A DNA stretch of 64,000 nucleotides, taken from NCBI GenBank assembly GCA_024277375.1, contig JAJRVD010000053.1:8680-72679 (forward strand), written 5' to 3'. Positions 1 through 20,707 of this stretch are shown here, in pieces. How positions within the stretch are numbered: the first letter of the stretch is position 1; each line of letters begins with the position of its first letter. Made by a program: the position numbers and the translations under genes. The stretch is from Candidatus Omnitrophota bacterium (lineage in GTDB: Bacteria > Omnitrophota > Gorgyraeia > Tantalellales > Tantalellaceae). The notes below the pieces were generated by a model. It saw nothing but the letters and a program-made list of their open reading frames with translations, did not search any database and was not told the DNA's origin.

Positions 1-1071
1 GGATTTACTATGACAAATGGAAAGTTCGGGAAATTGTTCGGCTCGCCTCGCCGCCGGCCTGAAAGCAAGCTTGAACAGAGGCATATGGATCTGGCCAGAT
101 CCGTTCAGGTCGTTACAGAGATGGCGATGCTTAATATAGCGAAATATGTCCACGCGCGAACGGGGAGTGACAATCTTTGTCTTGCCGGGGGAGTTGCTCT
201 TAATTGCGTAGCGAATGGTAAAATATTGACCGAAGGACTTTTTAAGAATGTCTGGATACAGCCGGCCGCGTCTGACGCGGGAGGAGCGTTGGGGGCCGCG
301 TTGGCAGGGTGGTATGAATATTTGGGGAATGACCGATCAGCCGATGGAAGCGGAGATCAACAGAAAGCGAGTCTCCTCGGGCCTTCTTTTTCGGATGATG
401 AGATAGAAAAATATTTGAATGAAAATAAGATACCATTCGAGAAACTTACAAGCGAAAGTGTTTCTGAGAGCGTTTCAGATCTTTTGGCCGATCAGAAGGT
501 CATAGGATGGTTTCAAGGGCGAATGGAGTTCGGCCCACGTGCTTTGGGTTCAAGAAGTATTCTCGGAGATCCAAGATCTAAGGAGATGCAGTCTATCCTT
601 AATAGAAAAATAAAGTTCAGAGAATCTTTCAGACCCTTCGCGCCAAGTGTTATTCTGGAAAAGACGAGTGAATGCTTTAACCTGAAAGGTGAAAGTCCCT
701 ATATGCTTATTGTGGCACCCATTAATGAGAAACAAAGAGAGTCTGTTCCAAAGGAAAGTGAGCTTGCGGGATTGACGAAACTAAGCGTAAAAAGATCCCG
801 GATCCCGGCGGTCACGCATGTAGATTATTCCGCGAGGGTTCAGACCGTAAAGCGCGAGGATAATCCTGTATTTTATGACATGATCAAGAAATTTAATGAT
901 GATCACGGTTGTCCGGTGGTTATAAACACTTCATTCAATGTAAGGGGTGAGCCCATAGTTTGCACTCAGGAGGAAGCGTACAAATGTTTTATGCGGACAA
1001 ATATGGACTTCTTAATAATGGGTTCGTATCTTGTTGATAAGGCAGAACAGCGTGCAGCGTACAGCGCATAG
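1..1071 (+). CDS. Carbamoyltransferase (NodU/CmcH family), C-terminal ~355 aa; N-terminus lies upstream of the window
   Basis: Open frame runs to position 1. Translation has the carbamoyltransferase C-domain signatures LCLAGGVALNCVANGKI and NTSFNVRGEPIVCTQEEA. Stop TAG at 1069..1071. Confidence 0.8.
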   Translation, partial: GFTMTNGKFGKLFGSPRRRPESKLEQRHMDLARSVQVVTEMAMLNIAKYVHARTGSDNLCLAGGVALNCVANGKILTEGLFKNVWIQPAASDAGGALGAALAGWYEYLGNDRSADGSGDQQKASLLGPSFSDDEIEKYLNENKIPFEKLTSESVSESVSDLLADQKVIGWFQGRMEFGPRALGSRSILGDPRSKEMQSILNRKIKFRESFRPFAPSVILEKTSECFNLKGESPYMLIVAPINEKQRESVPKESELAGLTKLSVKRSRIPAVTHVDYSARVQTVKREDNPVFYDMIKKFNDDHGCPVVINTSFNVRGEPIVCTQEEAYKCFMRTNMDFLIMGSYLVDKAEQRAAYSA

Positions 1072-1155
1072 AGCATGGCGTATGGGCAGTAAATAGAGAA
1101 GATCCCTCGGTTTCGCTCGGGATGACAAGCTTTTAAAGTTGCTAAGCAAAAAATT

Positions 1156-1236
1156 GCATACAACATGTTGTAGGGGTTCGATTTATCGAACCCGATATAA
1201 CGGGTTTGATGAATCAAGCCCCTACATTATGACATA
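1156..1236 (+). repeat. Structured intergenic repeat family A, copy 1 (core 1169..1226)
   Basis: catacaacatgTTGTAGGGGTTCGATTtATCGAACCCGATATAACGGGtTTGATGAATCAAGCCCCTACATTATGACA. Confidence 0.8.
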
Positions 1237-1250
1237 GCCTGGAAGCGGGG

Positions 1251-1664
1251 ATGACGGTTTTTATGAAGAAAGAAATTACTAAAAAAGATCTAAGACAATT
1301 TGGGGTGGTTTTTGCGGTTATACTTACCCTGATAGGGTTTCTCCAGATGGGAAAGGGGTATGACGTTGTCGCTTCGTTTTTCTGGATAAGCGCGATCCAT
1401 ATGGTCGCTTTCGGGTTGATAGCCCCGGTACTGCTAAAACCTATTTTTCACATTTTCACGAAGGTAGCGCATGCCATGGGTTGGGTTAACACCCGGGTTG
1501 TCCTGGTCCTCGTATATTATTTGATCTTAACTCCGATCGGTCTCATAATGCGGTTGTTTAGAAAGGATCTTTTAGGGAGCCATATTGACAGGTCAAAAGA
1601 GACTTATTGGATAAAAAGAAAAGTTGGCGCGGTCTCTAAAGAGAGCTTGGAGAAACAGTTCTAA
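1251..1664 (+). CDS. SxtJ-like small polytopic membrane protein
   Basis: 137 aa with three hydrophobic segments. Sits immediately after a carbamoyltransferase, as in the conserved carbamoyltransferase/SxtJ/SxtK arrangement. Family assignment is from memory of the family, not from a search. Confidence 0.5.
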   Translation: MTVFMKKEITKKDLRQFGVVFAVILTLIGFLQMGKGYDVVASFFWISAIHMVAFGLIAPVLLKPIFHIFTKVAHAMGWVNTRVVLVLVYYLILTPIGLIMRLFRKDLLGSHIDRSKETYWIKRKVGAVSKESLEKQF

Positions 1665-1699
1665 TTCAGTTATAAGCGTGGAAGTGGGTGTCGTTGCGA

Positions 1700-1745
1700 G
1701 GGCACGAAGTGCCCGAAGCAATCTTTTATTTGTTGAGATTGCTTC
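1700..1745 (+). terminator. Two consecutive hairpins after the SxtJ-like gene: GGGCAC-GAA-GTGCCC, then GAAGCAATC-(13 nt, T-rich)-GATTGCTTC
   Basis: Found by direct inspection. They lie immediately upstream of repeat A copy 2. Confidence 0.35.
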
Positions 1746-1746
1746 G

Positions 1747-1856
1747 TCGTAATTTGTTTTGCGGATGGTCGTATGTAATATGTTGTAGGGGTTCGATTCA
1801 TCGAACCCGATATGACGGGCTTGACAAATCAAGCTCCTACATTATGCCACAGTCTG
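1747..1856 (+). repeat. Structured intergenic repeat family A, copy 2
   Basis: tcgtaatttgttttgcggatggtcg ... TGTAGGGGTTCGATTCATCGAACCCGATATgACGGGCTTGAcaAATCAAGCtCCTACATTATGcCACagtctga. Near-identical to copy 3 over about 110 nt. Confidence 0.85.
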
Positions 1857-1881
1857 AAGGGCAAGGCTACGAGGAGAACAC

Positions 1882-2040
1882 ATGGGGAAGATATCTATTT
1901 TGAAAGAATTTTGGGAGTTTTTGAAGGAAAGAAAAAAATGGTGGCTCTTGCCGATAATTATAGTGTTGCTTCTTTTGGGGCTTTTGATAATTTTTACAGA
2001 ATCTGCGGCTGTAGCGCCATTTGTTTATACGTTGTTCTAA
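1882..2040 (+). CDS. DUF5989/SxtK-like 52-aa membrane peptide. It is absent from the ORF track because it is under 60 aa. It lies in frame +1 of the spurious track ORF 1812..2045.
   Basis: Hand translation gives [52 protein letters not shown]. This matches the DUF5989 pattern (EFWxFLKxRKKxWLLPIIxVLLLLGxLIxxTxxSAxAPFIYTLF) and the position after SxtJ. Confidence 0.55.
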
Positions 2041-2052
2041 TCTAAGGGGGAA

Positions 2053-2989
2053 TATGAGGATACTATTAACCGGTGGGTCCGGGTTTCTCGGGTCTCATTT
2101 GGCGGAGAGATTATTGGCGGATGGGCACCAGGTAGTGTGCATGGACAATCTTATAACTGGCCGGGTGGAAAACATCGATCATCTCGCGAGTGATAAGAAC
2201 TTTGAGTTCATAAAGCATGACGTGTCGAAGTATATCGTTGTAAAAGGGCAAATAGATTGTGTCCTGCATTTCGCGTCTCCGGCCAGTCCGATAGATTATC
2301 TGGAGCATCCGATCAAAACGTTAAAGGTGGGTTCTCTCGGCACACATAACGCGCTCGGAGTCGCTAAAGCACACGGGTCCAGATTTTTGCTCGCGTCCAC
2401 TTCAGAGGTTTATGGGGATCCTCTGGTGAACCCTCAGCCGGAAACATATTGGGGTAATGTAAACCCGGTAGGACCGCGAGGATGCTATGATGAGGCAAAA
2501 CGTTTCGGTGAGGCCATAACAATGGCGTATCACAGGACACATGGTATTGACGCGAAGATCGTGCGGATATTTAATACATACGGTGAGCGTATGCGCCATC
2601 ATGACGGGAGGGTCGTTCCGAACTTTATTGATCAGGCACTCAAGGGAGAGCCTATTACGGTTTATGGTGATGGGTCTCAAACAAGAAGCTTTTGTTATGT
2701 TTCGGACCTGGTTGACGGGATCGTGCGTCTTATGATGTCGGATCTGAATGAACCGGTCAATATAGGCAATCCGACTGAGATGAATGTTCTGGATTTTGCC
2801 AAAAAAATAATTGAGTTAACCGGTAGTAAAAGTGAGATAATTTTTGAGGATCTGCCGGTCAATGACCCAAAAGTGAGAAGACCGGATATAACAAAGGCTA
2901 AAGCGAAGTTTGGATGGGAGCCGAAAGTTGATCTGGCTGAAGGGCTCGCGAGAGTTATTAAATGGTTTAAGGCGAATTATAAGGAATAA
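2053..2989 (+). CDS. NAD-dependent epimerase/dehydratase, UDP-glucuronate decarboxylase (UXS/ArnA C-domain) type
   Basis: [16 protein letters not shown] Rossmann motif with a UXS-like YDEAKR catalytic dyad context. RBS aagggggaa lies upstream of ATG 2053. The track ORF starts earlier at TTG 2021. Confidence 0.7.
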
Positions 2990-3003
2990 ACAGGGAGCAT
3001 GAG

Positions 3004-4179
3004 GTGCATAAACCGCACGGTGGTAAATTAATAGATAGAACACTCGACGCCAAGAGCGCCGCTGAATGGAAAGATATGGAGGGGAAGCTTCCCGAAATAG
3101 TTCTTGTTCATGAGAAAGTGCAGGAAGTGACGAATATCGCTTTCGGTGTTTTTAGTCCCCTTGAAGGATTTATGGACGAAGCGGATTATAAGAGCGTTAT
3201 TGGAAGATCCCGTTTAGCCAACGATCTGGCTTGGACTATCCCTATTGTGCTTGATGTGGACATTAAAGTATCAAAAGACTATACGCGCGGTGACAATGTT
3301 TTGCTTAAAGATGTAACGGGAAAGATCTTTGCGGTGCTTACGGTAAGCGATATATACGATTATGATAAAGCGGAATACTCTAAGAATGTTTTTGGAACGG
3401 ACGATAAAACGCATCCAGGCGTCAGGAAAATATTTGATATGAAGGACGTTTTGGTAGGAGGGAAGATAGATCTTATAGAAGAAGCAGAAAACGATTTTTC
3501 ACGGTACACATTACATCCTAAGGAAACGCGAGTGCTTTTTAAAGAAAAGGGATGGAGGGACGTAGCGGGGTTTCAGACGCGTAATGTCCCACATTTGGGG
3601 CACGAGTTTGTTCAAAAGACCGCTTTATCGTTTGTGGACGCTGTTTTTATAAATCCCGTTATTGGAAGAAAGAAGTGCGGGGATTTTAAAGATGAAGTTA
3701 TTCTCGAGGCGTATGAAGAGCTGCTTAAGCATTACTTCTTAAAAGAAAGAGTGTTCATGTCCATTCTTTTAACTGAGATGAGGTATGCGGGGCCAAAGGA
3801 GGCGGTATTTCACGCGATAATCAGGAAGAATTTCGGGTGTACCCATTTTATTGTAGGCAGGGACCATGCCGGTGTAGGAGATTATTACGGTCAATTTGCG
3901 GCACATGATATTTTTGATCAATTCCCTGAGATTGAAATAACTCCCATATTTTTCAGGACCTTTTTTTATTGTCGCAAATGCGCCAGTATCGCAAATGATA
4001 AAACATGCCCGCATAACGAGGCAGACAAAGTTGTTTTTAAGGGCACTCATATTCGGAACCTTTTGCAGAAGGGGGATGTTCCCCCTGAGAGTATGATGCG
4101 ACCGGAAGTGACAAAAGTTATTCTTTCGCATAAGGATCTATTTGTCGGTTCTTCTCCCCCCGAGGCAGTAGTTGGGTAG
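3004..4179 (+). CDS. sat: Sulfate adenylyltransferase (ATP sulfurylase)
   Basis: GFQTRNVPHLGHEFV (QTRN/HxxH ATP-sulfurylase motifs) and GRDHAGV. GTG start with RBS cagggagca. Confidence 0.8.
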   Translation: MHKPHGGKLIDRTLDAKSAAEWKDMEGKLPEIVLVHEKVQEVTNIAFGVFSPLEGFMDEADYKSVIGRSRLANDLAWTIPIVLDVDIKVSKDYTRGDNVLLKDVTGKIFAVLTVSDIYDYDKAEYSKNVFGTDDKTHPGVRKIFDMKDVLVGGKIDLIEEAENDFSRYTLHPKETRVLFKEKGWRDVAGFQTRNVPHLGHEFVQKTALSFVDAVFINPVIGRKKCGDFKDEVILEAYEELLKHYFLKERVFMSILLTEMRYAGPKEAVFHAIIRKNFGCTHFIVGRDHAGVGDYYGQFAAHDIFDQFPEIEITPIFFRTFFYCRKCASIANDKTCPHNEADKVVFKGTHIRNLLQKGDVPPESMMRPEVTKVILSHKDLFVGSSPPEAVVG

Positions 4180-4198
4180 GAGGGCTAAAGGAGTGGTA

Positions 4199-4795
4199 AT
4201 GGACGGGTTTACGATATGGTTTACAGGGCTTTCCGGATCAGGAAAAACAACTTTAGCGCATATGCTGGTTGATGAATTAAAAGATATGGGCCGCAAAGTT
4301 GAGCTTCTTGATGGAGACGTTATAAGAACAAATTTGAGTAAAGGACTGGGGTTCAGTAAGGAAGATCGTGACGAGAATATCAGAAGGGTGGGGTTTGTTT
4401 GTGAGCTGTTGTCGCGTAATGGCATTATCGCGATAGCTGCCTGTATTTCACCGTATAAAGATATTAGAGATTCTCATAGAGGAAAAATAGACAGGTTTTT
4501 TGAGGTTTTCACTAAATGTTCTATAGAAGAATGTATCAAACGCGATCCTAAGGGGAATTATAAAAAAGTACTTTCCGGAGAGATCAAAAATTATACAGGT
4601 ATAGATGATCCTTATGAAGAGCCGTCTGACCATGAGATTACCGTTGAGACAGACAAAGAGTCTCCGGAAGAAAGTTTGAGAAAAATAATTAATAAACTGA
4701 AAGAATTAAAGTTTCTTCCAGATTGTCGATCACATTGCGATAAGGAAGAAGAGAAAATTATTAAGGATAGGTTGAAATCGTTAGGGTACCTGTAA
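4199..4795 (+). CDS. cysC: Adenylyl-sulfate kinase (APS kinase)
   Basis: P-loop FTGLSGSGKTTLA and the APS kinase DGDVIRTNLSKGLGFSKEDRDENIRR motif. ATG 4199 preceded by RBS aaaggag. Confidence 0.85.
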   Translation: MDGFTIWFTGLSGSGKTTLAHMLVDELKDMGRKVELLDGDVIRTNLSKGLGFSKEDRDENIRRVGFVCELLSRNGIIAIAACISPYKDIRDSHRGKIDRFFEVFTKCSIEECIKRDPKGNYKKVLSGEIKNYTGIDDPYEEPSDHEITVETDKESPEESLRKIINKLKELKFLPDCRSHCDKEEEKIIKDRLKSLGYL

Positions 4796-4811
4796 GAGGA
4801 AAGTGTTTGCG

Positions 4812-6242
4812 ATGAAAAAAGTATTGGTTATAGGATTGGATTGCGCTGCGTTGAAGATAGTTTTTGATCGACGTGATCAGTTGCCAAATATTGATAAGAT
4901 GTTGTCGGGTGGAATATCCGCGCCATTCAGAAGCGGACATCCTCCGATAACGATACCGGCATGGATGACGATGACCTCGGGAAAAGACGCGGGAGAACAT
5001 GGGGTTTATGGGTTCAGGCATAGAGTGACGGGAACGTATAACGATATTAAGTTAAGTTCCGCCAGTAGTTTTAAAAAAAGCGCTATTTGGGATATTATAG
5101 CGGAAAAGGGGCTTAAGTCCTGTCTGGTGGGTGTGCCGCCAAGTTATCCGATATCGGAAGTAAATGGCAGTAAGGTGTCTTGTTTTATGACTCCCGGTTC
5201 TGATAAGGAATATACGTACCCTTCTTCGCTGAAGGCGGAATTGGAAGAGAGGTTTGGACCTTTCAAATTTGATGTCGAATTTCGTACTTCTGATCGCGAT
5301 AAATTAAAAGAAGAGCTCTTTGAAATGACATTGCAACATTTTGAGGTGATAAAATATCTTCTCCTGAATAAACCATGGCAGTTTTTCATGTTTGTTGAGA
5401 TAGGTGTGGATCGCATCCAACACGCGTTTTGGAAATTCTTTGACAAAACACACCATGGTTATACCCAGGGCAATGAATATGAAGACGTGATCATGGAGTA
5501 TTACCGTATGTTGGATAAGGGGATAGGAGAGATACTTGATCTGGTAGATACTGATACCGTAATTTTTGTTGTTTCCGATCATGGCGCGAAAGCTATTAAA
5601 GGAGTGTTTTGTATAAATCAGTGGCTTGTTGATAAAGGGTATCTTGTGCTAAGAAATACGCCTGCCGAGGGAACTCCTATCGAGCTGGCTGAAGTGGATT
5701 GGGGGCGGACAAAGGTATGGGCATGGGGAGGCTATTATTCCCGTGTGTTCTTTAATGTGAAAAACAGGGAAAAAGAGGGTATTATAGATCAGGATGAATA
5801 TGATTTTTTGAGAGATAAGGTCAAAAATGAGCTTATTTCTGTCCGCGGACCCGAAGGTGAAGAATGGAAAACCCGCGCTTTTCGTCCGGAAGAGTTGTAT
5901 GATGAATTAAATGGAGATTATCCGGATCTTATGGTATATTTTGATGACCTTTCATGGCGAGCCGCTGGGACTTTAGGCCATAAGAGTATGTATTTAAACG
6001 AGAACGATACCGGTCCGGATGACGCTGTGCACGATTGGGAAGGTGTTTTTGTGATGTATGACCCCGAGAAGCAAAGTGGGGAGCGGCGTGATGTAGTGGA
6101 TATCCTAGATTTCGCGCCGACAGTTCTGGAGATAATGGGAGTAGAGCAGCCCGCGGATATGAAGGGAAAAAGTGTTTTGCAAAGAAACAATAATGATAGA
6201 ATCCTGCAAAATGGAACTTTCGTTATTCGGACTCTGTCGTAA
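4812..6242 (+). CDS. Alkaline-phosphatase-superfamily protein, type I phosphodiesterase/nucleotide pyrophosphatase-like
   Basis: VLVIGLDCAA followed by PPITIPAWMTMTSGKDAGEHGVYG (Thr-nucleophile NPP-type core) and a VVSDHG metal-ligand motif. Confidence 0.6.
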   Translation: MKKVLVIGLDCAALKIVFDRRDQLPNIDKMLSGGISAPFRSGHPPITIPAWMTMTSGKDAGEHGVYGFRHRVTGTYNDIKLSSASSFKKSAIWDIIAEKGLKSCLVGVPPSYPISEVNGSKVSCFMTPGSDKEYTYPSSLKAELEERFGPFKFDVEFRTSDRDKLKEELFEMTLQHFEVIKYLLLNKPWQFFMFVEIGVDRIQHAFWKFFDKTHHGYTQGNEYEDVIMEYYRMLDKGIGEILDLVDTDTVIFVVSDHGAKAIKGVFCINQWLVDKGYLVLRNTPAEGTPIELAEVDWGRTKVWAWGGYYSRVFFNVKNREKEGIIDQDEYDFLRDKVKNELISVRGPEGEEWKTRAFRPEELYDELNGDYPDLMVYFDDLSWRAAGTLGHKSMYLNENDTGPDDAVHDWEGVFVMYDPEKQSGERRDVVDILDFAPTVLEIMGVEQPADMKGKSVLQRNNNDRILQNGTFVIRTLS

Positions 6243-6346
6243 TTCGTTTTGCGGATGGTCGCATACAGTACATTGTAGGGGTTCGATTCATCGAACCCGA
6301 TATAACGGGCTTGATGAATCAAGCCCCTACATTATGACACGATCTG
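6237..6346 (+). repeat. Structured intergenic repeat family A, copy 3
   Basis: tcgtaattcgttttgcggatggtcg ... TGTAGGGGTTCGATTCATCGAACCCGATATAACGGGCTTGATGAATCAAGCCCCTACATTATGACACgatctga. Confidence 0.85.
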
Positions 6347-6403
6347 ATTGAAAAAACAGCGTTTTGCATGAGTCTAACAATAGTAATGTAAAGGAGATAG
6401 CCA

Positions 6404-7393
6404 ATGGCTAAGAAAAAGGCATTGATAACGGGTATAACGGGACAGGATGGTAGCTACCTGGCGGAGTATTTGTTTGAACTGGGTTATGAAGTGCATGGTA
6501 TTGTCAGGCGTGTAGCTTTGGAAGACCAGCGCCATCGTATGTGGCGTATACGACATATACAGGACCAGGTAACACTGCATTGCGGCTCTCTGGAGAGTTA
6601 TCCAAGCATTTTCAAGGTAGTAATGGATGTGCAGCCCGATGAATGTTACCATCTGGCGGCCCAAAGTTTTGTTACATATTCGTTCGAGGACGAATTTTCG
6701 ACGTTTAATATAAATATTAACGGTACGCATTATGTCATATCCGCGCTTAAGAACGCGTGTCCGGAATGTAAGTTTTATTTCGCGGCTTCCAGTGAAATGT
6801 TCGGTAAGGTGCAGGAAGTTCCGCAGTCGGAGACGACGCCATTCCACCCGCGGTCTGTGTATGGGATATCGAAAGTAGCGGGCTATGATCTGACGAGGAA
6901 TTATCGCGAGGCTTACAATATGTACGCCGCGAGCGGAATCCTGTTTAATCACGAGTCTCCTCGCAGAGGGTTTGAGTTTGTTACACGAAAGATCACGTCA
7001 GCCGCCGCGCGCATAAAACTCGGGCTATCAGATAAACTGTTGCTTGGTAATTTGGAAGCTAAAAGAGATTGGGGACACTCCCGGGAATATGTAAAAGTTA
7101 TGCACACGATGCTTCAACAGGATGTGCCGACGGATTATGTAATAGGTACGGGAGAGACACATTCGGTTCAGGAATTTGTTGACCTGACTTTTAAGTCTTT
7201 GGATCTTGATTATAAAAAGTATGTGGGGGTAGATGAGAACTTTTTCAGGCCCGCGGAAGTGGATCTCTTGATCGCCGATACCGATAAGGCAAAGAAAGAA
7301 CTGAACTGGGAATATGCTCTTACTTTTGAACAGTTGGTAAATGAAATGGTAAAAGAGGATTATGATCTTTTAAAAAAGAGACATAATTTGTAG
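6404..7393 (+). CDS. gmd: GDP-mannose 4,6-dehydratase
   Basis: ALITGITGQDGSYLAEYL, FYFAASSEMFG and YGISKVAGYDLTRNYREAY are classic Gmd blocks. Confidence 0.85.
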   Translation: MAKKKALITGITGQDGSYLAEYLFELGYEVHGIVRRVALEDQRHRMWRIRHIQDQVTLHCGSLESYPSIFKVVMDVQPDECYHLAAQSFVTYSFEDEFSTFNININGTHYVISALKNACPECKFYFAASSEMFGKVQEVPQSETTPFHPRSVYGISKVAGYDLTRNYREAYNMYAASGILFNHESPRRGFEFVTRKITSAAARIKLGLSDKLLLGNLEAKRDWGHSREYVKVMHTMLQQDVPTDYVIGTGETHSVQEFVDLTFKSLDLDYKKYVGVDENFFRPAEVDLLIADTDKAKKELNWEYALTFEQLVNEMVKEDYDLLKKRHNL

Positions 7394-7416
7394 CATCCGC
7401 TGGTATAAAAGGGTGA

Positions 7417-7476
7417 GTTGTGTATACTTCCTACCAGGCATAGCCTGTACGGAAGCATACACAACTTCCGTTTTCG
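7417..7476 (+). terminator. Strong hairpin (about 15-bp stem with an inner 5-bp hairpin in the loop) followed by a T-run, downstream of gmd
   Basis: gttgtgtatacttcc ... ggaagcatacacaac, then ttccgttttcg. Confidence 0.4.
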
Positions 7477-7523
7477 TGAAATATGTTTTTTAAAAAATCA
7501 AAAAGAGAGAGGAGTAGGACGAA

Positions 7524-8651
7524 ATGGAAGTGCCGTTACTCGATCTGAAAGCGCAGTATCAGACGATAAAAAAAGATATTGATGAAGCGGTAAAAAGGGT
7601 TATTGACAGTCAGTATTTTATTCTCTCGGGGGAGGTAAATGCTTTTGAAGAAGAAATTGCCGCTTATACGGGGGTGCCGTACGCGGCGGGTGTAGCGTCA
7701 GGGACGGACGCTTTGATCCTCGCCTTAAAAGCTTTTGGTATAGGTGAAGGAGACAGGGTTATTACCAGCCCCTTCACTTTTTTCGCGACCGCCGAGGCGG
7801 TTTCTCTGGTTGGCGCGAAACCTGTTTTTGTGGATATCGACCCCAAGACATACAATATTGATCCCGATAAGATCGAGAAGCTGTTACGGGAAACGAGTCA
7901 TGAGTTACGAGACACGATAAAGGCTATCATCCCGGTACATCTCTATGGACAGTGCGCGGATATGGACCGTATAATGAGGATCGCGGAGGAACATGGGCTT
8001 AAGATCATAGAAGATTGCGCTCAGGCGATAGGTGCTTCGAATAATGGGCGTCCTGCCGGTAGTTTTGGGGACGCGGGAGCTTTCAGTTTTTTCCCAAGTA
8101 AAAATCTTGGCGGGTTCGGTGACGGGGGAATGGTTATTTCTAACGATAAACAGGCAATAGAGCGTGTTAAGAAACTGCGTGTTCATGGGAGTGTCGAACA
8201 ATATATACATGAGGAATTGGGATATAATTCACGTCTTGACAGCCTTCAGGCCGCTATACTTCGCGTGAAATTAAAAAAACTTAATGAATGGCTTGATGCC
8301 AGAAGGGCTATAGCCGCCAAATATGATGAGGCGTTTTCGCCCTTGGGCATTATTACCCCTAAAGTGGCCGATGGAAACGCGCATGCGTATCATCAGTACA
8401 CAATGGCGGTTGAGGAAAGGGATAGATTCGTTCAGTATCTTAATGACAATGGTATTGCCGCGCGTGTTTATTATCCCGTTCCTTTGCATCTGCAGCCATG
8501 CTATAGAGATCTGGGTTATTCTATCGGTAGTTTTCCGATCTCTGAGGAACTGGCGGAGAAGGTGTTGTCTCTCCCTATTTATCCGGAATTGTCAGAAGAA
8601 AAGGTGAACTATATTATCCAAACAGTGAAAGATTTTATCGCTAAAGGATAG
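7524..8651 (+). CDS. DegT/DnrJ/EryC1/StrS PLP-dependent sugar aminotransferase (candidate GDP-perosamine synthase)
   Basis: Family N-terminal pattern and SGTDALILAL ... FSFFPSKNLG (PLP lysine region). Adjacent to gmd. Confidence 0.75.
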   Translation: MEVPLLDLKAQYQTIKKDIDEAVKRVIDSQYFILSGEVNAFEEEIAAYTGVPYAAGVASGTDALILALKAFGIGEGDRVITSPFTFFATAEAVSLVGAKPVFVDIDPKTYNIDPDKIEKLLRETSHELRDTIKAIIPVHLYGQCADMDRIMRIAEEHGLKIIEDCAQAIGASNNGRPAGSFGDAGAFSFFPSKNLGGFGDGGMVISNDKQAIERVKKLRVHGSVEQYIHEELGYNSRLDSLQAAILRVKLKKLNEWLDARRAIAAKYDEAFSPLGIITPKVADGNAHAYHQYTMAVEERDRFVQYLNDNGIAARVYYPVPLHLQPCYRDLGYSIGSFPISEELAEKVLSLPIYPELSEEKVNYIIQTVKDFIAKG

Positions 8652-8665
8652 GGATAGTGAATAGT

Positions 8666-8711
8666 CGTAGGAGTGGCCTCCCCTCGACTTCGCTCGGGAC
8701 AGGCTGGCCGC
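8666..8711. repeat. Composite repeat: family C hairpin arms (CGTAGGAGtGGCCTC ... TGGCCGC) with a family B motif (CCCTCGACTTCGCTCGGGACAGGC) nested in the loop
   Basis: Compared with 46604..46629 and with the B copy at 1105..1130 (CCTCGGTTTCGCTCGGGATGACAAGC). Confidence 0.55.
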
Positions 8712-8823
8712 AAACTGAAAAAGTGTCAAAGCGTCATAGTGGTACATAATCACAAACTGTCATCCTGAGAGAGGGAGGAACTAAGTGACGACCGAGCCGA
8801 AGGATCTCAAAAAGGTTAGGCTT

Positions 8824-9549
8824 ATGAATGAAAAAGTATTCTTATCGATAATTATTCCCGCTTATAATGAGGAAAGTAATATTTCAGGTACACTTTCTGA
8901 GGTAGCGGAATATCTGGAAAGCAGGAACTTTTCCTGTGAAGTGATCGTTATCGATGACGGGTCTAAAGACGCTACAGTCGAGATAGCCCGCCAATTCGGG
9001 GGGAAGATCCCGAACCTGAAAATTATCGAAAGTTCGCCGAACGGTGGAAAAGGGTATGTTCTTAAAAAAGCAATATTCCAGTCTAATGGCGAATATGTAA
9101 TGTTCATGGACGCCGATAGTTCCGTTTCCGTGAGTGAATTAGATAACTTTTTGCCGCTCTTGGAGGAGGAAACAGATGTTTATATAGCTTCAAGAAGGGT
9201 TCCAGGAGCAAAAGTGTCTATGCCTCAGAGTCGTGAAATATTGGGAAAGGTATATATCTTCTTTTCGAAGGTGTTGCTCGGCATAGAAGTAAACGACATA
9301 AACTGTGGATTTAAGTTGTTCAAGGGCAAGGTCGCGAAAGAAGTGTTTTCCAAGCAGATCATGGGAGACTGGAGTTTTGACGCGGAAGTTCTGTTTATAG
9401 TCGGAAAATACGGATATAAAATAAAAGAAATTCCTGTAGAATGGATCTATAAGGATACTTCGAAGGTGCGTCCGATCCGGGACGGGATAAATAGTTTTAT
9501 TAGTCTGGTCAAGATAAGGGTCAATAACCTAAGCGGTAAATATGAGTAA
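8824..9549 (+). CDS. GT2 polyprenyl-phosphate sugar synthase (GtrB/CsbB/DPM1-like)
   Basis: SIIIPAYNEE, VIVIDDGSKD and FMDADSS (DxD) motifs. Confidence 0.75.
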   Translation: MNEKVFLSIIIPAYNEESNISGTLSEVAEYLESRNFSCEVIVIDDGSKDATVEIARQFGGKIPNLKIIESSPNGGKGYVLKKAIFQSNGEYVMFMDADSSVSVSELDNFLPLLEEETDVYIASRRVPGAKVSMPQSREILGKVYIFFSKVLLGIEVNDINCGFKLFKGKVAKEVFSKQIMGDWSFDAEVLFIVGKYGYKIKEIPVEWIYKDTSKVRPIRDGINSFISLVKIRVNNLSGKYE

Positions 9550-10261
9550 TAACGTGTTCATATCTATAATAATTCCGGCATACAACGAGGAGTAAAGAAT
9601 AGGCGCTACACTGGCGCATATATACGACTATCTTAAGTCTAAAGACTTTAAATATGAAGTGATTGTCGTTGATGACGGTAGCGATGACGATACTGTGCGG
9701 AAGGCGAAAGAAAGCGATATATTCAAAACAGGTGCTCTTAGCGTTGTTAGGAACGAGACCAATAGCGGCAAAGGATTCGCGGTTAAGGCGGGTATCTTAA
9801 AAAGTGCCGGTAAATATGTGCTGTTCAGTGACGCGGATTCCTCGACCCCGATCGATGAGTTGGATAAGATGCTTGAGTATATCGGGGATGATGTCGATAT
9901 AGTTATAGGGTCACGTTCTGTTCCTGACTCGGATGTCAGAGTTCCGCAGCCATGGCATAGAGAGAAGATGGGTAAGATATTCAACTTTTGCGTTAGAGCG
10001 CTTCTCGTAGATAGTTTTAAGGATACACAGTGTGGCTTCAAACTTTTTAAGGGGGATATTGCCCGGGAAATAGCTCGTCTTTCAGAAATTAAGGGGTTTT
10101 GTTTTGACGTAGAGATGTTGTATATCGCTGGACAGAAGGGGTATAGGGTTAGGGAAGTCGGTGTGGTGTGGAATAATTCTATTCAGAGTAAAGTGAAGAT
10201 ACTAAACAGTTCTTTAAGCATGTTTCTTGACCTCTTGAGGATAAAAAAAATACACAAATGA
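9542..10261 (+). pseudogene. Second GtrB-like GT2 paralogue interrupted by an in-frame TAA at 9593..9595 (or a sequencing error)
   Basis: ATG 9542 gives MSNNVFISIIIPAYNEE, then TAA. The same frame continues RIGATLAHIYDYLKSKDFKYEVIVVDDGSDDD... to 10261. The track shows only the downstream GTG-initiated piece 9659..10261. Confidence 0.6.
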
Positions 10262-11973
10262 TCTCTTTTCGTAAAGAACATTACTTTCTTGCCGTGATAA
10301 TCGGTCTGGGTTTTATTGTCCGTATATGGGGTTTGGACTTCGGCCTTCCTTTTCAATTCCATCAGGATGAACCGATAGTTGTCAACCATGCTATTGCTTA
10401 TGGTACAGGTGACTTTAATCCTCACTTTTTCATTATCCCGCCGCTATGTTCATACATGCTTTTTACGTTTTATGGTGGGTATTTTGTTCTGGGAAAACTC
10501 TTTGGGGCGTTTATCGGCGCTGATCAGTTCGCTTTAAGTTTCTTTTCTGATCCAAGCATTTTTTATTTGATCGCAAGGACCGTTCTGGGGGTTTTACCCG
10601 GAACTCTGGTCATATGGTTGTGCTACGTTCTGTATAAGAAACTTTTCGGGGAAAAAGGAGCGTTATATGCGGCGATGGTAATTGCCTTTTCTTTTTTGTG
10701 TGTCGCGAATGCCCATTACGCGTATACCGACAGCATAATGCTCGTTCTTATACTCATGGTATATATTTCGCTGGTTAACTTGATAAAAAAACCGGTGATC
10801 AAGAATTATTTGATATCTGCTGTGCTATTAGGGCTTGCTGTAGGTACTAAATACAATGCGGCACTCTTGGCGGTAAGCTGTTATACCGCTCATGTAATTG
10901 CCGTGTATGAGCATGGCCTGGACAAGAAAAGGGTGATCATTGATAAAGCTCTTTGGCTGTCGTTTTTGGTGGTGATCGGAATATTTGTGTTTACAAATCC
11001 GTTCGCGATATTGGATTGGTCCGCTTTTTCGAGGACAATAACAGGCGGGATAAGACATCACCCGATGGGGTGGTTGTACCATCTTCGTTATTCAACTATT
11101 GAGGGTGTCGGATTGGCTGTTCTGGCGGGTGGTATTATGGGGGGAGTTATAATGTTCATAAAGGAAAAAAAGTGGAAGGCTTTTCTTCTTTTTTCCTTTC
11201 CAGCTGCTTTTTATGTACATCTTGTATTCGCGAGTCAGAGATTTTCGAGATATGCTTTGCCTCTCGTACCGTTCCTGGCGATATGCGTGTCTTTTTTGCT
11301 CTGGCAGGTGCTATTCCAAAAAGGAGGAACGGTTCTTAGGAAGTCTGGTGTAGTTGCGATATCGTTGTTACTGCTCATCCCTACAACCGCTAAATCGATC
11401 AAGGCGGACCTTCTTTTTTCTGGTGAAGATACCAGAACATTATCGACCGATTGGATACTGAAAAACATTCCTTCAAATACTAAAATAGTCGTTGATCACA
11501 CGTCATTCAGACCCCAGATCCTTCAGACGAAAGAACAAATGTATGAAAAGAATGAAATAGCCGGGTATCAAGAAGGCATGCGTGAAACGAAAAAAAAGAA
11601 AATAGGGTTTTTGCTGAAGACAATAGAAGGTATGAAGGCCTATAACGTTTATTTCTTATCGCATAAGCCGGAGAAGGGCGGACAGTTTCTTTCTACCATG
11701 CCTGCCATTGCTTATGATCTCGATGATATAAAAGCGAGGGGCATAGAATATGTCGTTATCAATAACAATACGTCCGGCGGGAAAAAGGATAAATTCATCG
11801 AACGCCTTAAGCGAGAGTCCGAGGTTGTCGCTCAATTCAGTCCATATTATGACGAGAAGATAAGGAAACGGTTCGATCCTATAGATGTTACATGTGTTTC
11901 GGTAGGGACCAGGGAGATCTTCTCCCGGCGTTTGTCAGGACCGTGTATCATTATTTACAAGCTGAGATACTGA
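10258..11973 (+). CDS. GT-C membrane glycosyltransferase, PMT/ArnT (GT39/GT83-like)
   Basis: Polytopic protein with an HQDEP loop motif near the N-terminus, as in ArnT/PMT family transferases. Confidence 0.6.
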   Translation: MISFRKEHYFLAVIIGLGFIVRIWGLDFGLPFQFHQDEPIVVNHAIAYGTGDFNPHFFIIPPLCSYMLFTFYGGYFVLGKLFGAFIGADQFALSFFSDPSIFYLIARTVLGVLPGTLVIWLCYVLYKKLFGEKGALYAAMVIAFSFLCVANAHYAYTDSIMLVLILMVYISLVNLIKKPVIKNYLISAVLLGLAVGTKYNAALLAVSCYTAHVIAVYEHGLDKKRVIIDKALWLSFLVVIGIFVFTNPFAILDWSAFSRTITGGIRHHPMGWLYHLRYSTIEGVGLAVLAGGIMGGVIMFIKEKKWKAFLLFSFPAAFYVHLVFASQRFSRYALPLVPFLAICVSFLLWQVLFQKGGTVLRKSGVVAISLLLLIPTTAKSIKADLLFSGEDTRTLSTDWILKNIPSNTKIVVDHTSFRPQILQTKEQMYEKNEIAGYQEGMRETKKKKIGFLLKTIEGMKAYNVYFLSHKPEKGGQFLSTMPAIAYDLDDIKARGIEYVVINNNTSGGKKDKFIERLKRESEVVAQFSPYYDEKIRKRFDPIDVTCVSVGTREIFSRRLSGPCIIIYKLRY

Positions 11974-11978
11974 AAACC

Positions 11979-14252
11979 ATGAAAAAAACTAAAGATGTAT
12001 TTTTTATCTTATTGCTCGCCTCCGCGGTATGCTTTATTTTTCGGGATATTCTTTTTTTAAAAGTAACATTCATAAGAGGTGATTACCTCCAGCAGTTCTT
12101 CCCCTGGCTGAATTTTTACTCCGAAAGTATAAAAAGTTTACAATTACCCTTATGGATAAGATCTGTGCAGTGTGGGTTTCCTCTGCTTGCGGAGGGGCAG
12201 ATAGGGGTTCTTTATCCCTTAAACTTGGGGTTTTTCTACTTTTTACCTTTCAGGGAAGCCTATAATTATTCTTTTCTGTTTCATTTTATATTATCCGGAG
12301 TATTCACCTATTTATATGCCAGAAAAATGAAAGCGGATTTTTGGGGAGGAGCGCTTGCCGCTATTTTGATATGTTTTGGGAGTGCTTACGCCGGGTGTTT
12401 TGTGCATATAGCTACATTGAAGTGCCTTGTGTGGTTTCCTCTTGTTTTATTGGTATCTGAAGTTCACCTCGAAAGGAAAGACAAGAAATTACTGCCGTTG
12501 ATAGGGGTTTTTGTGGGAATGCAGTATTTATCAGGCTCATTTCAAATGGCGTTCTATTCTACCGCTATGTACATAGTATATTTCTTTATTCGAAATCGGG
12601 CGGACGGTAAAAGTTTTTGGGGCTTCGCGAAAGACATACTTATCGTTTTGGCGGTCGCGGTCGCTATAGGATTACCTCAGATAATTCAGACCGCGCAGTT
12701 AGCGGAATATTCCAACAGGCCCTTAAAGACCCTGGATTTCGCGTTATGGAACTCTTTGTCTCCGGCGGCTTTTTTGGGCACCTTTTTGCCTTATATGGGG
12801 ATGATCTTCTCTAAAGGTAATGTTTTTTATATAGGGATGATAGGTCTCTTTTTCTGTTTATACGCTATGACATCTAAAAACACATCAAAGCGGTCAAAGG
12901 GGATCGTATTTGTGTTAGTACTGGCTGTATTTATCGCGCTTGGTAAATACAACCCTCTGTACGTATGGATGATAAAGGCATTCAATTTTTATACTTTCAG
13001 GGCTCCTTCAAGGGCGATATATTTTGCTGTTTTTGCCGCCTCTGTCCTTGCTGGTGTGGGTTTTACAAGTTTTTTTAATAATATTCGAAGCCGTCGGGAG
13101 TCTTCCTTATACAGGAAATTCACAGGGATATTGATCTTTGTTCTCAGCGCGTTTTCCGCAATAAAACTTACCTTGATGTATTATGGTCCGCAGATATTGG
13201 AGATAGCAAAAAAATATGTCGCTAAGAACATTTATGGCAAACCTTTTCATCGGTATAGTTTGGATGTTTATATGAGCAAAACGGAGAATTTTTATAATAC
13301 GATCATAAACCGTTTTTCGTTGGAGGACCGATATGTTCTTACTTCTGTCGTTATGATCGCGGGGGCTTTGGTCGTGTTGTACGCCGTAAATAATATCAAA
13401 CGGAAAACGTTAGCCCGATCTTTGTGTTTTGGATTTGTGGCCGCGGAACTTTTTTTCTTCAGTTTTTTTGCCAAGGGTATAAATACGGATCTGGCGGGTT
13501 TCGACTTCGCCGCTCCAAAAGAAAAAGAAATATTTAATATTCTAAAGGCGGATAAAGAGCTGTTCAGAATATGTCCGATAGGATACCAGGAGGGCTTGCC
13601 GTTATGGTTATGGCCGAGCATGAACCAGGTGTATGGGTTTGATAGTATAGCTTTATATTCACCTTTGGCTAACAGGGATTATTTTCTTGATACAAAAGGG
13701 CTTGGCCTTGTTGACGATTCGCTGGGAATACTTCCGTATAACATAGAGGCATTGCATGACAAAATGGGCCTCCTGAAGGCGATGAACGTTAAATATGTTA
13801 TCGCGCCAGAGAAGTTGTATCACCCCGCGCTACAACTACTTATCTCTGAAGGAGATATACAGCTATACCTTGTTAAAGGATTTGGCGAAAGGTTCTTTTT
13901 CTCGACCTCTATAGAAGATATTACCTCTGCCGAGGCGGATATATCCGTAGAAGAGTATCGATCAGGTTACGCGGAAGTAATTGTTGATTGTCGGGAGAAA
14001 GGGTTCCTTGTGTTTTCCGAGAAAAATTATTCCGGGTGGGAAGTATATGTTGACGGAAAGAAGGGTAAGTTAGAAAAGTATGGTTCTGTGCTCCAGTCTG
14101 TAAGGATCTCGGCCGGATCGCATAGGGTTGTTTTTAAATACGATCCCGCGTATTTAAAGATTATTTTGTATTTTTCATTGGCTATTTTTTTAATGGCATT
14201 GTTGATCAGTGCAATGGGATTATTTGTGCAACGTACGGTAAAAAACAAATAG
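11979..14252 (+). CDS. YfhO-family GT-C membrane glycosyltransferase
   Basis: About 758 aa with many TM segments, then an extracytoplasmic C-terminal domain and a terminal TM. Size and architecture are typical of YfhO. Follows a CsbB-like GT2. Confidence 0.6.
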   Translation: MKKTKDVFFILLLASAVCFIFRDILFLKVTFIRGDYLQQFFPWLNFYSESIKSLQLPLWIRSVQCGFPLLAEGQIGVLYPLNLGFFYFLPFREAYNYSFLFHFILSGVFTYLYARKMKADFWGGALAAILICFGSAYAGCFVHIATLKCLVWFPLVLLVSEVHLERKDKKLLPLIGVFVGMQYLSGSFQMAFYSTAMYIVYFFIRNRADGKSFWGFAKDILIVLAVAVAIGLPQIIQTAQLAEYSNRPLKTLDFALWNSLSPAAFLGTFLPYMGMIFSKGNVFYIGMIGLFFCLYAMTSKNTSKRSKGIVFVLVLAVFIALGKYNPLYVWMIKAFNFYTFRAPSRAIYFAVFAASVLAGVGFTSFFNNIRSRRESSLYRKFTGILIFVLSAFSAIKLTLMYYGPQILEIAKKYVAKNIYGKPFHRYSLDVYMSKTENFYNTIINRFSLEDRYVLTSVVMIAGALVVLYAVNNIKRKTLARSLCFGFVAAELFFFSFFAKGINTDLAGFDFAAPKEKEIFNILKADKELFRICPIGYQEGLPLWLWPSMNQVYGFDSIALYSPLANRDYFLDTKGLGLVDDSLGILPYNIEALHDKMGLLKAMNVKYVIAPEKLYHPALQLLISEGDIQLYLVKGFGERFFFSTSIEDITSAEADISVEEYRSGYAEVIVDCREKGFLVFSEKNYSGWEVYVDGKKGKLEKYGSVLQSVRISAGSHRVVFKYDPAYLKIILYFSLAIFLMALLISAMGLFVQRTVKNK

Positions 14253-14277
14253 GATCGAGCCACCATCAGAAAAACAT

Positions 14278-19881: not shown

Positions 19882-19882
19882 G

Positions 19883-20617
19883 ATGGTTGAGAAATTCCAC
19901 TTTCACAGGTTTGAGTTTAAGTATTTGGTAGATAGAAAGACGAAAGAAAATCTGTTGAAAGATCTCCTTGACTTTATGGATTTTGATATACCTGGTAGTT
20001 CAAATAATGCTTACTACGATGTTTTGAATTTGTATATGGATTCGCAGGATCTGAGATTCTACAGGGAAAAGATAGATGGCCTTATGTTCAGGAGAAAAAT
20101 GAGGTTTCGTTTTTACACTTCAAATCCAGAGGAGAACACGCACGTATTTGCCGAGATAAAAAGAAAAAGAAATATGACGATCATAAAGGACAGGATAAGA
20201 TTGTCTTATGAAGACGCGCTGAACATCGCTATGAGGTCTTTTTCTGGGATCGTGAGGAAGCTGGACAGTTTCGGGGCTCAGGAAAGAGATATTCTGTCGG
20301 AATTTTTGTTTGAGGTTATGAAATGCAGGTTGTCCAGCAGATTATGGGTGAATTATAAAAGAACAGCGCTTGCCGCTAAAAAATTTCCCAGATTACGTGT
20401 TACATTTGATGATGATATTTTCTCTACCATAGCGAGGGATGGATTTGGATTTAACCTTAAGAGAAACCCTCGCCGGATATTTTCGAATAGATCGATCTTT
20501 GAGGTTAAATACAATGGTACGCTCCCGTACTGGATCCATGGACTAATACGCAAATACCAGTTGTTCAGGGAACCGATATCGAAATATTGTAATGCCGTAG
20601 AAAATCTTTTGTATTGA
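19883..20617 (+). CDS. VTC-domain (CYTH-like, polyphosphate-polymerase-type) protein
   Basis: Size (~245 aa), basic-rich composition and an N-terminal FEFKY strand resemble bacterial VTC-domain proteins. Start/stop overlap with the CotH gene. Called from memory of the family. Confidence 0.5.
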   Translation: MVEKFHFHRFEFKYLVDRKTKENLLKDLLDFMDFDIPGSSNNAYYDVLNLYMDSQDLRFYREKIDGLMFRRKMRFRFYTSNPEENTHVFAEIKRKRNMTIIKDRIRLSYEDALNIAMRSFSGIVRKLDSFGAQERDILSEFLFEVMKCRLSSRLWVNYKRTALAAKKFPRLRVTFDDDIFSTIARDGFGFNLKRNPRRIFSNRSIFEVKYNGTLPYWIHGLIRKYQLFREPISKYCNAVENLLY

Positions 20618-20707
20618 TGAATTCGCGGAGGAAATTGTCCTCCGGTGTACTGACAACAACTAAAAGTTCTTTGTGATCTCTGTGGTTGAAAAAAAAGGAG
20701 AAGGAAG

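Follow-up and report, generated by a model that had tools for sequence, protein, structure and literature searches.

In a 64,000-nucleotide stretch of DNA from a Candidatus Omnitrophota bacterium (hereafter the window, meaning this whole stretch), we found that two genes for the synthesis of 3'-phosphoadenosine 5'-phosphosulfate (PAPS), sat and cysC, are followed directly by a gene for a protein of the nucleotide pyrophosphatase/phosphodiesterase (NPP) fold, which we call X, and that X is a conserved partner of PAPS synthesis across phyla and in both prokaryotic domains. We hypothesize that X consumes PAPS as a non-canonical sulfotransferase, that is, by PAPS-dependent sulfuryl transfer, a tentative reading from sequence comparison that we regard as substantial though short of probable. 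We propose X as the PAPS user because it is linked more tightly to cysC than to sat, because it is fused to adenosine 5'-phosphosulfate (APS) kinase in loci that lack sat, because it occupies the position of a canonical sulfotransferase in a comparable gene order, and because archaeal cassettes encode a separate phosphatase for 3'-phosphoadenosine 5'-phosphate (PAP). The cassette in the window represents a bacterial version, set within a glycan locus, of a gene cluster known from archaea; its spread, the replacement of Sat by CysD and CysNC, the fusions, and a C-terminal tail motif are new relative to the literature.

Pfam families were assigned to window open reading frames (ORFs) of at least 110 amino acids (aa) at E ≤ 1e-3, and NCBIfam equivalog cutoffs were also applied. 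On the + strand, ATP sulfurylase is encoded by sat at 3004-4179 (PUA_2 and ATP-sulfurylase domains; NF003166 score of 516.7 against a cutoff of 387) and APS kinase by cysC at 4172-4795 (APS_kinase, 3.3e-58; NF002059, 248.8 against a cutoff of 244), the latter with a C-terminal extension. X follows on the same strand at 4812-6242 (476 aa; alternative GTG start at 4803) and is an alkaline-phosphatase-superfamily enzyme, with PF01663 (Phosphodiest) as its best family (8e-46; 157.6 bits against a gathering cutoff of 23) and a lower score for PF00884 (27 bits, E = 3e-6). All of the genes that an earlier note on this DNA had named, these three included, were found at or near the places it gave, with strong Pfam support.

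We found that X keeps the active site of the NPPs. The two-metal ligands and the Thr47 nucleophile (D10, T47, D200, H204, D256, H257, and H407) are invariant among 17 diverse sequences, the motif PPITIPAW of X aligns to the nucleophile motif SLTFPNH of Xanthomonas NPP, and its VVSDHG aligns to the NPP metal-ligand motif VVSDHG. When an AF2 model of X (pLDDT 81.8) was searched with Foldseek, a structure search that the earlier note had proposed, the best matches were ENPP1/3, snake-venom phosphodiesterase, and Xac NPP (E about 1e-15, TM-score 0.5-0.56, identity 14-16%), so its label of the gene as NPP-like holds. A sequence search of the PDB with X gave no match, a profile search yielded no more than weak matches to NPP, sulfatase, and iPGM, and literature searches on COG3379 and on alkaline-phosphatase-superfamily sulfotransferases that use PAPS returned nothing relevant. 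Since hydropathy revealed no signal peptide or hydrophobic segment in X, whose metal-binding Asp is already at residue 10, X is probably cytoplasmic. Thus, X shares with Xanthomonas NPP and ENPP1/ENPP3 a common fold, the Thr nucleophile motif, and the Asp/His metal ligands, but it differs from them in its probable cytoplasmic rather than secreted location, in large insertions, and in overall likeness (identity 14-16%, TM-score about 0.55). Many Arg and Lys residues of X are invariant, for example in the Arg-rich YGFRHR segment, which occupies the place of the ...HN... segment of NPP, and this pattern suggests a polyanionic substrate.

The earlier note had stated that no canonical sulfotransferase is recognizable in the 64 kb, and our searches bear this out. 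The sulfotransferase HMM search that it had proposed, run here on the window ORFs of at least 110 aa at E ≤ 1e-3, matched no family (Sulfotransfer_1/2/3/4/5 and Stf0 types), and none matched X or the unassigned window ORFs even at E ≤ 10. A crude regular expression for the 5'-phosphosulfate-binding (5'-PSB; PKxGTT-like) P-loop had no match in six frames of the window, and gave only spurious matches across more than 90 related loci. Among the Pfam-annotated relatives (L001, L004, L005, L087, L092, L094, and L095) no canonical sulfotransferase was found. In L092, the closest syntenic relative (66-82% identical proteins), the cluster starts directly after LptD, and the 10 kb 5' of the carbamoyltransferase gene contain nucleotide-sugar genes only and no sulfotransferase, while the downstream side of the syntenic relatives L001 and L087 likewise contains none. 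The 64-kb window also has no cysH or sulfite reductase gene, and neither a DHH PAP phosphatase nor a CysQ (no member of the DHH/DHHA1 or Inositol_P families).

Homologs of X number in the thousands, and the best 120 are 54-70% identical to it, including proteins named from Omnitrophota, Aminicenantes, Acidobacteriota, Bathyarchaeota, and Hodarchaeota; the nearest relatives of X and of the carbamoyltransferase at the start of the window are both from Candidatus Omnitrophota. A scan of one genome per species gave at least 588 confirmed stretches with X relatives. We counted gene adjacency in the 80 closest loci, using as denominators those with enough flank. cysC lies immediately 3' of X in 62 of 71 loci and sat lies upstream of X in 47 of 63, and 46/61 have the full order sat-X-cysC, among them every one of the 8 archaeal loci with sufficient flank. 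This order, or the sat-cysC-X order of the window, is conserved in Omnitrophota, Aminicenantes/Acidobacteriota, Bathyarchaeota, Asgard lineages, Hydrothermarchaeota, and Nitrososphaerales. Within 5-kb flanks, X was accompanied by both activation genes and cysC in 35 loci, by cysC alone in 4, by sat alone in 0, and by neither in 5. The other genes near X vary, with UGDH and a short-chain dehydrogenase/reductase (SDR) in Aminicenantes, a UXS-like SDR with GMD and DegT in the window and its relatives, and GT2 and nucleotidyltransferase genes in Asgard archaea.

The link to PAPS synthesis persists when the activation enzymes are exchanged. In the nearest relatives of the window, L001 and L087, the genes [DUF2061::APS kinase]-CysD-CysN::CysC take the place of Sat and CysC at an identical position of the corresponding glycan cluster, and X is encoded directly after them, its start overlapping the cysNC stop in L001. 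On an S. meliloti plasmid (L100), the position that X holds in L001, after cysD-cysN, is taken by a canonical family-2 sulfotransferase. X is also fused to APS kinase: Desulfotomaculum copahuensis encodes an X::APS-kinase protein of 777 aa, each half of which matches its window counterpart at 52-53% identity, and both domains also occur together in at least 12 more protein clusters of 641-700 aa (at least 13 in all). We rejected a read-through artifact as the source of the D. copahuensis fusion, since it is a single gene in NCBI and the other two-domain clusters exist. In the three fusion loci examined, all of them polysaccharide clusters, no sat was found within the 2-10 kb of flank available. 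Together, the adjacency across phyla and domains, the persistence with CysD/CysNC, and the recurring APS-kinase fusions support the idea in the earlier note of a functional connection between the NPP-like gene and PAPS. The extra APS kinase in L001 (4386-5105) and L087 (6571-7290) is fused at its N-terminus to DUF2061, which is predicted to be a small membrane protein, so both loci hold two APS kinase domains; in L007 (5616-5912), DUF2061 is encoded directly after cysC.

The archaeal cluster was described in Pyrococcus yayanosii, where PYCH_17520-17560 form a five-gene sat - DHH pApase - type I phosphodiesterase - cysC cluster, and the cassette also occurs in T. onnurineus, F. placidus, A. boonei, A. 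pernix, and I. hospitalis (Jin et al. 2021, PMC8268124). A sulfotransferase or PAPS reductase was not identifiable in P. yayanosii, and the authors guessed that the PF01663 protein PYCH_17550 removes inorganic pyrophosphate (PPi); their account of this protein consists of that guess only, and the tail motif, the fusions, and the bacterial spread are not noted there (PMC8268124). In both this cassette and the window (3004-6242), ATP sulfurylase, the PF01663 enzyme, and APS kinase are one-strand neighbors, and among the loci found here we recognized matches to the small upstream 'CopG-like' gene and, in Asgard and Hydrothermarchaeota loci, the DHH PAP phosphatase. On the other hand, the window is bacterial, has the order sat-cysC-X, and places these genes next to a carbamoylation module within a glycan cluster; a DHH gene (Pfam, 64 kb) and a small CopG-like ORF are both absent from it, and the tail is carried on CysC instead.

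Asgard (Frey- and Jord-archaeia) and Hydrothermarchaeota cassettes read sat-DHH-X-cysC, and their DHH protein matches the PAP phosphatase of M. thermolithotrophicus over its full length (PDB 8a8k, E = 5e-39), an enzyme that excerpts of Jespersen et al. 2023 (PMC10322725) describe as specific and fast on PAP. A DHH/DHHA1 gene also lies directly after cysC in a Bathyarchaeota locus. Since sat, cysC, and a DHH PAP phosphatase are encoded together, the archaeal cassettes make PAPS and remove PAP, which leaves X as the sole unassigned member for the step from PAPS to PAP, and, as no redox-cofactor domain is seen in X, the simplest role to assign to it is sulfuryl transfer. The same presence of a homolog of a characterized PAP phosphatase makes it unlikely that the NPP-like enzyme is a plain PAP phosphatase, one possible form of the suggestion in the earlier note that the enzyme handles PAP or PAPS. 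The M. thermolithotrophicus ATPS-APSK-PAPP-PAPSR locus clusters ATP sulfurylase, APS kinase, and a DHH-type PAP phosphatase as the X cassettes do, but an APS-reductase-like PAPS reductase converts PAPS to PAP there, and the excerpts of the report do not mention an NPP-like gene (PMC10322725). No such PAPS reductase is present in the X cassettes.

We found that X is also accompanied by a shared C-terminal tail. The expression [RKQ]L[KRQES]xLGY followed by up to three residues and a stop, applied to six frames of the window and 95 loci, gave 91 matches, almost all of them on the X strand and adjoining X. The tail (...EEKVKERLKALGYID) ends an ORF near X in 74 of the 78 species loci with at least 400 nt upstream, the four exceptions having short flanks, and its consensus is S-K-E-D-E-E-K-V-K-E-R-L-K-A-L-G-Y-I-D-stop, with L, L, G, and Y invariant in 79/79 tails. 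In most loci the carrier is a protein of 70-110 aa, weakly similar to ribbon-helix-helix (RHH) proteins (E = 0.012), that is present even without sat and cysC; in L010 and L089, it is a protein of 51-58 aa; and in Omnitrophota, it is a DUF2061 membrane protein. The small ORFs just 5' of X in several loci are homologous to one another and all carry the same tail. A tblastn search of plasmids with the 22-aa tail peptide, too short a query for this purpose, gave no match. In some loci, including the window, the tail forms the C-terminus of CysC; the window version (...DKEEEKIIKDRLKSLGYL-stop, with ...KDRLKSLGYL at its end) spans 4739-4792 on the + strand and is the only match in the 64 kb. Since it is CysC that bears this tail, the cysC of the window belongs to the X system and is not a generic housekeeping cysC.

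In haloarchaea and in an Aminicenantes-type bacterial locus (L017), the tail forms the C-terminus of longer X paralogs themselves, and in a Halopiger glycan cluster it is also found on two 'sulfatase' genes and a CysD-like gene. Native CysD C-termini resemble it (...LETLRREGYM, ...MERLRDLGYM, and ...MEKKKQEGYF). Across loci L004-L098, the form ...EEKVKERLKALGY(I/L/M)(D) is borne by RHH-like, DUF2061, CysC, NPP-paralog, and haloarchaeal sulfatase-like proteins. We infer that the tail is most likely a docking peptide that brings a partner protein onto X; more speculatively, its Tyr could be mobile and serve as a sulfuryl acceptor. A second, longer alkaline-phosphatase-superfamily gene is common in X loci (L094 8127-9725, L095 26-1375, L037, L047, L053, and L056), directly 5' of the small tail gene and X, and encodes either a PF01663 paralog of 525-560 aa or a cytoplasmic-looking sulfatase-family protein. 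In Natrinema thermotolerans (CP031304.1, L098), a 27%-identical NPP-like paralog without the tail motif (9011-11305) lies in a housekeeping-like region, directly after a family-I inorganic diphosphatase gene.

In our reading, the region is the head of an envelope-glycan locus with two decoration modules, in one of which a soluble O-carbamoyltransferase would work with two small proteins, SxtJ and DUF5989. In the other, Sat would make APS, CysC would convert it to PAPS, and X would use the PAPS, passing the sulfuryl group to a cytoplasmic acceptor, such as a nucleotide sugar or a lipid-linked sugar, and freeing PAP. Because X keeps the NPP two-metal site and the Thr nucleophile, transfer through its metal center is possible, and could be direct or proceed via a covalent intermediate. 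A precedent for a non-canonical sulfotransferase of the alkaline-phosphatase superfamily, though from a different family, is provided by Agl30 and Agl31 of Halobacterium salinarum, which deletion and heterologous expression identified as N-glycan sulfotransferases; they are sulfatase-fold members of the superfamily, and the study did not define their sulfate donor (Zaretsky et al. 2025, PMC11980604). Compared by description, both systems have an alkaline-phosphatase-superfamily core encoded in a glycan cluster, and one of the two haloarchaeal enzymes is soluble and cytosolic; they differ in fold (a PF00884-like sulfatase fold versus the PF01663 NPP fold of X), and no linkage to sat or cysC is reported for Agl30/Agl31 (PMC11980604). 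Dedicated PAPS genes inside a glycan or decoration cluster are known from rhizobial NodPQ/NodH, from the S. meliloti plasmid locus, and from the Cobetia capsular polysaccharide cluster (PMC11766843). In such classical modules, the sulfate-using enzyme is encoded after cysNC, where the window has an NPP-fold enzyme, and unlike them the window has no Sulfotransfer_1/2/3-type protein and no CysQ.

Several observations weigh against a sulfotransferase role. A Thr nucleophile and a two-metal site are typical of phosphoryl or nucleotidyl transfer rather than sulfuryl transfer, and eukaryotic ATP sulfurylase-APS kinase-pyrophosphatase fusions illustrate that a pyrophosphatase can also join PAPS synthesis. 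X occurs without sat or cysC nearby in 5 of 44 loci (some Aminicenantes and others), as well as in L005 and L089. Archaeal and bacterial X are about 55% identical, as conserved as Sat and CysC, so a universal small substrate (PPi, PAP, or PAPS) fits better than a lineage-specific glycan acceptor. The gene search covered the 64-kb window, beyond which lie some 16 kb of contig and all other parts of the genome. Finally, the proven archaeal enzymes Agl30/Agl31 are of the sulfatase fold and not PF01663 members (PMC11980604), and according to Jin et al. a sulfotransferase gene adjoins the cassette in some archaea (PMC8268124).

The alternative that survives best, although we consider it unlikely, is that X is an inorganic pyrophosphatase that draws the unfavorable activation step forward by clearing the PPi that ATP sulfurylase releases, with an acceptor-specific sulfotransferase encoded elsewhere. 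A Thr/two-metal fold natively carries out phosphoryl transfer, and the equal conservation of X, Sat, and CysC suits a universal substrate such as PPi. This is the role that Jin et al. suggested for PYCH_17550 (PMC8268124), and excerpts of the M. thermolithotrophicus study report that PPi removal is rate-limiting for ATP sulfurylase in vitro, while proposing that this organism uses a separately encoded pyrophosphatase (PMC10322725). The diphosphatase gene beside the Natrinema paralog also fits. Against this role, NPP enzymes normally release PPi rather than hydrolyze it, and within 5-kb flanks X is accompanied in some loci by cysC alone but in none by sat alone. The fusion partner in the 13 or more clusters is likewise APS kinase and not Sat, with sat missing from the 2-10 kb of flank available at the three loci examined. 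Furthermore, X is retained with the GTP-driven CysDN system and in loci without PAPS genes, and its haloarchaeal paralogs are located in glycan clusters.

We consider it improbable that X acts as a phosphodiesterase or phosphotransferase on glycans or nucleotide sugars and has no connection to sulfate, with the sulfotransferase outside the window or with sat and cysC being housekeeping genes. PF01663 includes phosphoethanolamine transferases, some Aminicenantes pair X with an SDR and UGDH without PAPS genes, X stands alone in L089, and the 16 kb or so of contig and the remaining genome could hold a sulfotransferase. However, in the absence of a PAPS link it would be difficult to account for the adjacency counts, the fusions, and the exchange of Sat for CysD/CysNC, and the system-specific tail on the window CysC sets it apart from a generic cysC. 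The syntenic relative L092 has no sulfotransferase up to its LptD cluster boundary, and the lack of cysH and sulfite reductase genes in the window speaks against housekeeping sulfate assimilation. About as improbable is a phosphohydrolase acting on a sulfonucleotide or by-product, either a CysQ-like PAP 3'-phosphatase or a PAPS/APS hydrolase that limits the pool: the cysC linkage and the fusions do place X near PAPS, the window lacks a CysQ or DHH PAP phosphatase, the invariant Arg and Lys could bind a polyanionic nucleotide, and the closest folds, ENPP1/3, bind AMP and other nucleotides, but a homolog of a specific and fast PAP phosphatase already stands beside X in archaeal cassettes, hydrolysis of APS or PAPS would be a futile cycle and an unlikely cause of such conservation, and the PAPS consumer of P. 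yayanosii would be left unaccounted for.

A more elaborate version of the sulfotransferase reading, which we regard as a long shot, would join X, its longer paralogs, and the sulfatase-like proteins with ...ERLKALGY(I/L/M)D tails into a sulfation system of both prokaryotic domains, in which X would sulfate the invariant tail Tyr from PAPS and the resulting aryl sulfate would feed arylsulfatase-like transferases of the Agl30/31 type. By analogy with the C-terminal Cys tail of PAPS reductase, the tail would then act as a swinging arm in a sulfuryl relay, with alkaline-phosphatase-superfamily enzymes in place of classical sulfotransferases. If true, such a relay would explain why PAPS pathways stand orphaned in Thermococcales, Asgard archaea, Bathyarchaeota, Aminicenantes, and Omnitrophota, and would also account for the undefined sulfate donor of the haloarchaeal enzymes.

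In numerous archaea and uncultured bacteria, among them Pyrococcus, Asgard lineages, Bathyarchaeota, Aminicenantes, and Omnitrophota, PAPS is made and PAP destroyed with no known PAPS-using enzyme, a gap that X would fill in hundreds of species. If X is a sulfotransferase, it would represent a new and widespread route to sulfated cell-surface glycans and extend the haloarchaeal finding of N-glycan sulfation by alkaline-phosphatase-type enzymes, and sat and cysC in metagenomes would no longer imply sulfate assimilation. If it is instead a pyrophosphatase, it would still be a novel enzyme devoted to assisting sulfate activation. Experiments could take hold at the tail motif, and the cultured carriers P. 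yayanosii, T. onnurineus, and D. copahuensis make the question testable.

Upstream of the PAPS genes, the + strand of the window encodes a carbamoylation module in which PF02543, PF16861, PF19588, and PF19451 follow one another in that order, corresponding to a carbamoyltransferase, SxtJ, and DUF5989. The O-carbamoyltransferase gene is cut at its 5' end by the window start, leaving a 3' part of 356 codons at 1-1071 (end of Carbam_trans_N, 1.7e-26; Carbam_trans_C, 4.4e-74); the full-length protein (P0188) has 599 aa on the 80,144-bp NCBI contig. An SxtJ-family small membrane protein of 137 aa follows at 1251-1664 (PF19588, 6.8e-14) and a DUF5989 protein of 52 aa, the size of SxtK, at 1882-2040 (PF19451, 1.5e-25). 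As the earlier note had pointed out, the latter is missed by its ORF cutoff, and it was listed once we lowered the cutoff to 40 aa. Since hydropathy placed hydrophobic segments only in SxtJ (three to four) and DUF5989 (one) and none in the carbamoyltransferase, and since a carbamoyltransferase::SxtJ fusion is encoded elsewhere (P0210), the two small proteins probably anchor the carbamoyltransferase at the membrane. A gene without mention in the earlier note, for a UXS/ArnA-decarboxylase-like NAD-dependent SDR (2054-2989, + strand, its ORF opening with TTG at 2021; Epimerase and GDP_Man_Dehyd families), lies between this module and sat and is 82% identical to the syntenic L001 gene.

The trio stands beside PAPS genes in Omnitrophota (L007-L009 and L001/L092) and also in the cultured Gemmatirosa kalamazoonensis, and the gene order carbamoyltransferase-SxtJ-DUF5989 recurs in L001/L092 and L007/L009. 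On plasmid 2 of Gemmatirosa kalamazoonensis, a member of the Gemmatimonadota (L099, 579303-604178, an unannotated record), a carbamoyltransferase gene (63% identity) and a DUF5989 gene are divergent from cysN...cysC-cysD, the CysD being 74% identical to that of L001, and no NPP-like gene was found within 12 kb. Since the trio occurs without X within 12 kb in Gemmatirosa and is absent from L087, the carbamoylation and PAPS modules are often paired yet separable.

Of the two comparisons drawn in the earlier note, the likeness to the saxitoxin grouping is borne out, as a carbamoyltransferase, SxtJ, and a gene for about 50 aa follow the order sxtI-J-K with PAPS genes nearby. In the cyanobacterial SxtI-SxtJ-SxtK arrangement, the carbamoyltransferase is likewise followed by genes for about 135 aa and about 54 aa (sxtJ, 405 bp; sxtK, 165 bp), with PAPS-related genes nearby; the functions of SxtJ and SxtK are unknown (PMC2679770). 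The likeness of DUF5989 to SxtK is one of size and order. The sxt clusters make an alkaloid and include the APS kinase SxtO and a canonical sulfotransferase, SxtN (PMC2679770); unlike them, the trio described here is located in envelope-glycan clusters of Omnitrophota and Gemmatirosa. Of the second comparison, with a Nod-factor-like toolkit, the presence of PAPS genes and a carbamoyltransferase in a glycan locus stands. We rejected orthology to NodU, since the window-truncated protein scored 139.7 bits against the NF041651 equivalog cutoff of 1000, so the Nod-factor label is an analogy only.

A 112-nt intergenic element is present in three copies on the + strand of this part of the window only (1131-1242, 1746-1857, which we used as the reference copy, and 6236-6347). 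The copies share a nearly identical core of about 65 nt that folds as a single long hairpin (-39 kcal/mol, z = -7.1). The element matches no Rfam family and was absent from 91 related loci; possible identities are a REP/MITE-like element or a stabilizer of RNA within the operon. The third copy begins at the X stop codon, and the C-terminus of the window X (6186-6242) is about 18 residues longer than in its relatives. Since this extension ends where copy 3 begins, insertion of the repeat may have altered the 3' end of the X gene.

The remaining 58 kb form a large envelope-glycan locus, nearly all of it on the + strand by Pfam annotation, with GMD, DegT, GT2, and PMT_2 genes, a nonulosonic-acid block, phosphonate genes, CDP-alcohol transferases, and radical-SAM enzymes. 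Directly downstream of X, a block at 6404-15960 (+ strand, Pfam) encodes GMD, a DegT aminotransferase, two GT2 proteins, a PMT_2 protein, a YfhO-like protein, and a second PMT_2 protein, which are genes for glycan transfer of the polyprenyl-phosphate-sugar/GT-C type, and the order after X is the same in L001 and L087. A second alkaline-phosphatase-superfamily protein is encoded at 39674-41899 (741 aa, N-terminal hydrophobic segments followed by a sulfatase domain, LtaS/EptA-like), with genes for a pyruvate-kinase-barrel protein, a CDP-alcohol phosphatidyltransferase, a nucleotidyltransferase, and an EamA transporter 3' of it. We considered this protein as the sulfotransferase and found it a less likely candidate, given its LtaS/EptA-like N-terminal segments and its CDP-alcohol/nucleotidyltransferase neighbors; the region is probably a phospho-alcohol decoration module, and the protein is a possible Agl30-like candidate.

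At 46715-49452, a phosphoenolpyruvate (PEP) mutase::nucleotidyltransferase fusion and a thiamine pyrophosphate-dependent decarboxylase indicate phosphonate decoration of the glycan of the 2-aminoethylphosphonate type. GC skew is positive over the whole length of the window (about 0.1-0.3), and all long genes but one are on the + strand. Also within the glycan locus, at 17128-21391, genes for VTC-domain and DUF4956 proteins come after one for a 917-aa CotH-kinase and beta-helix protein.

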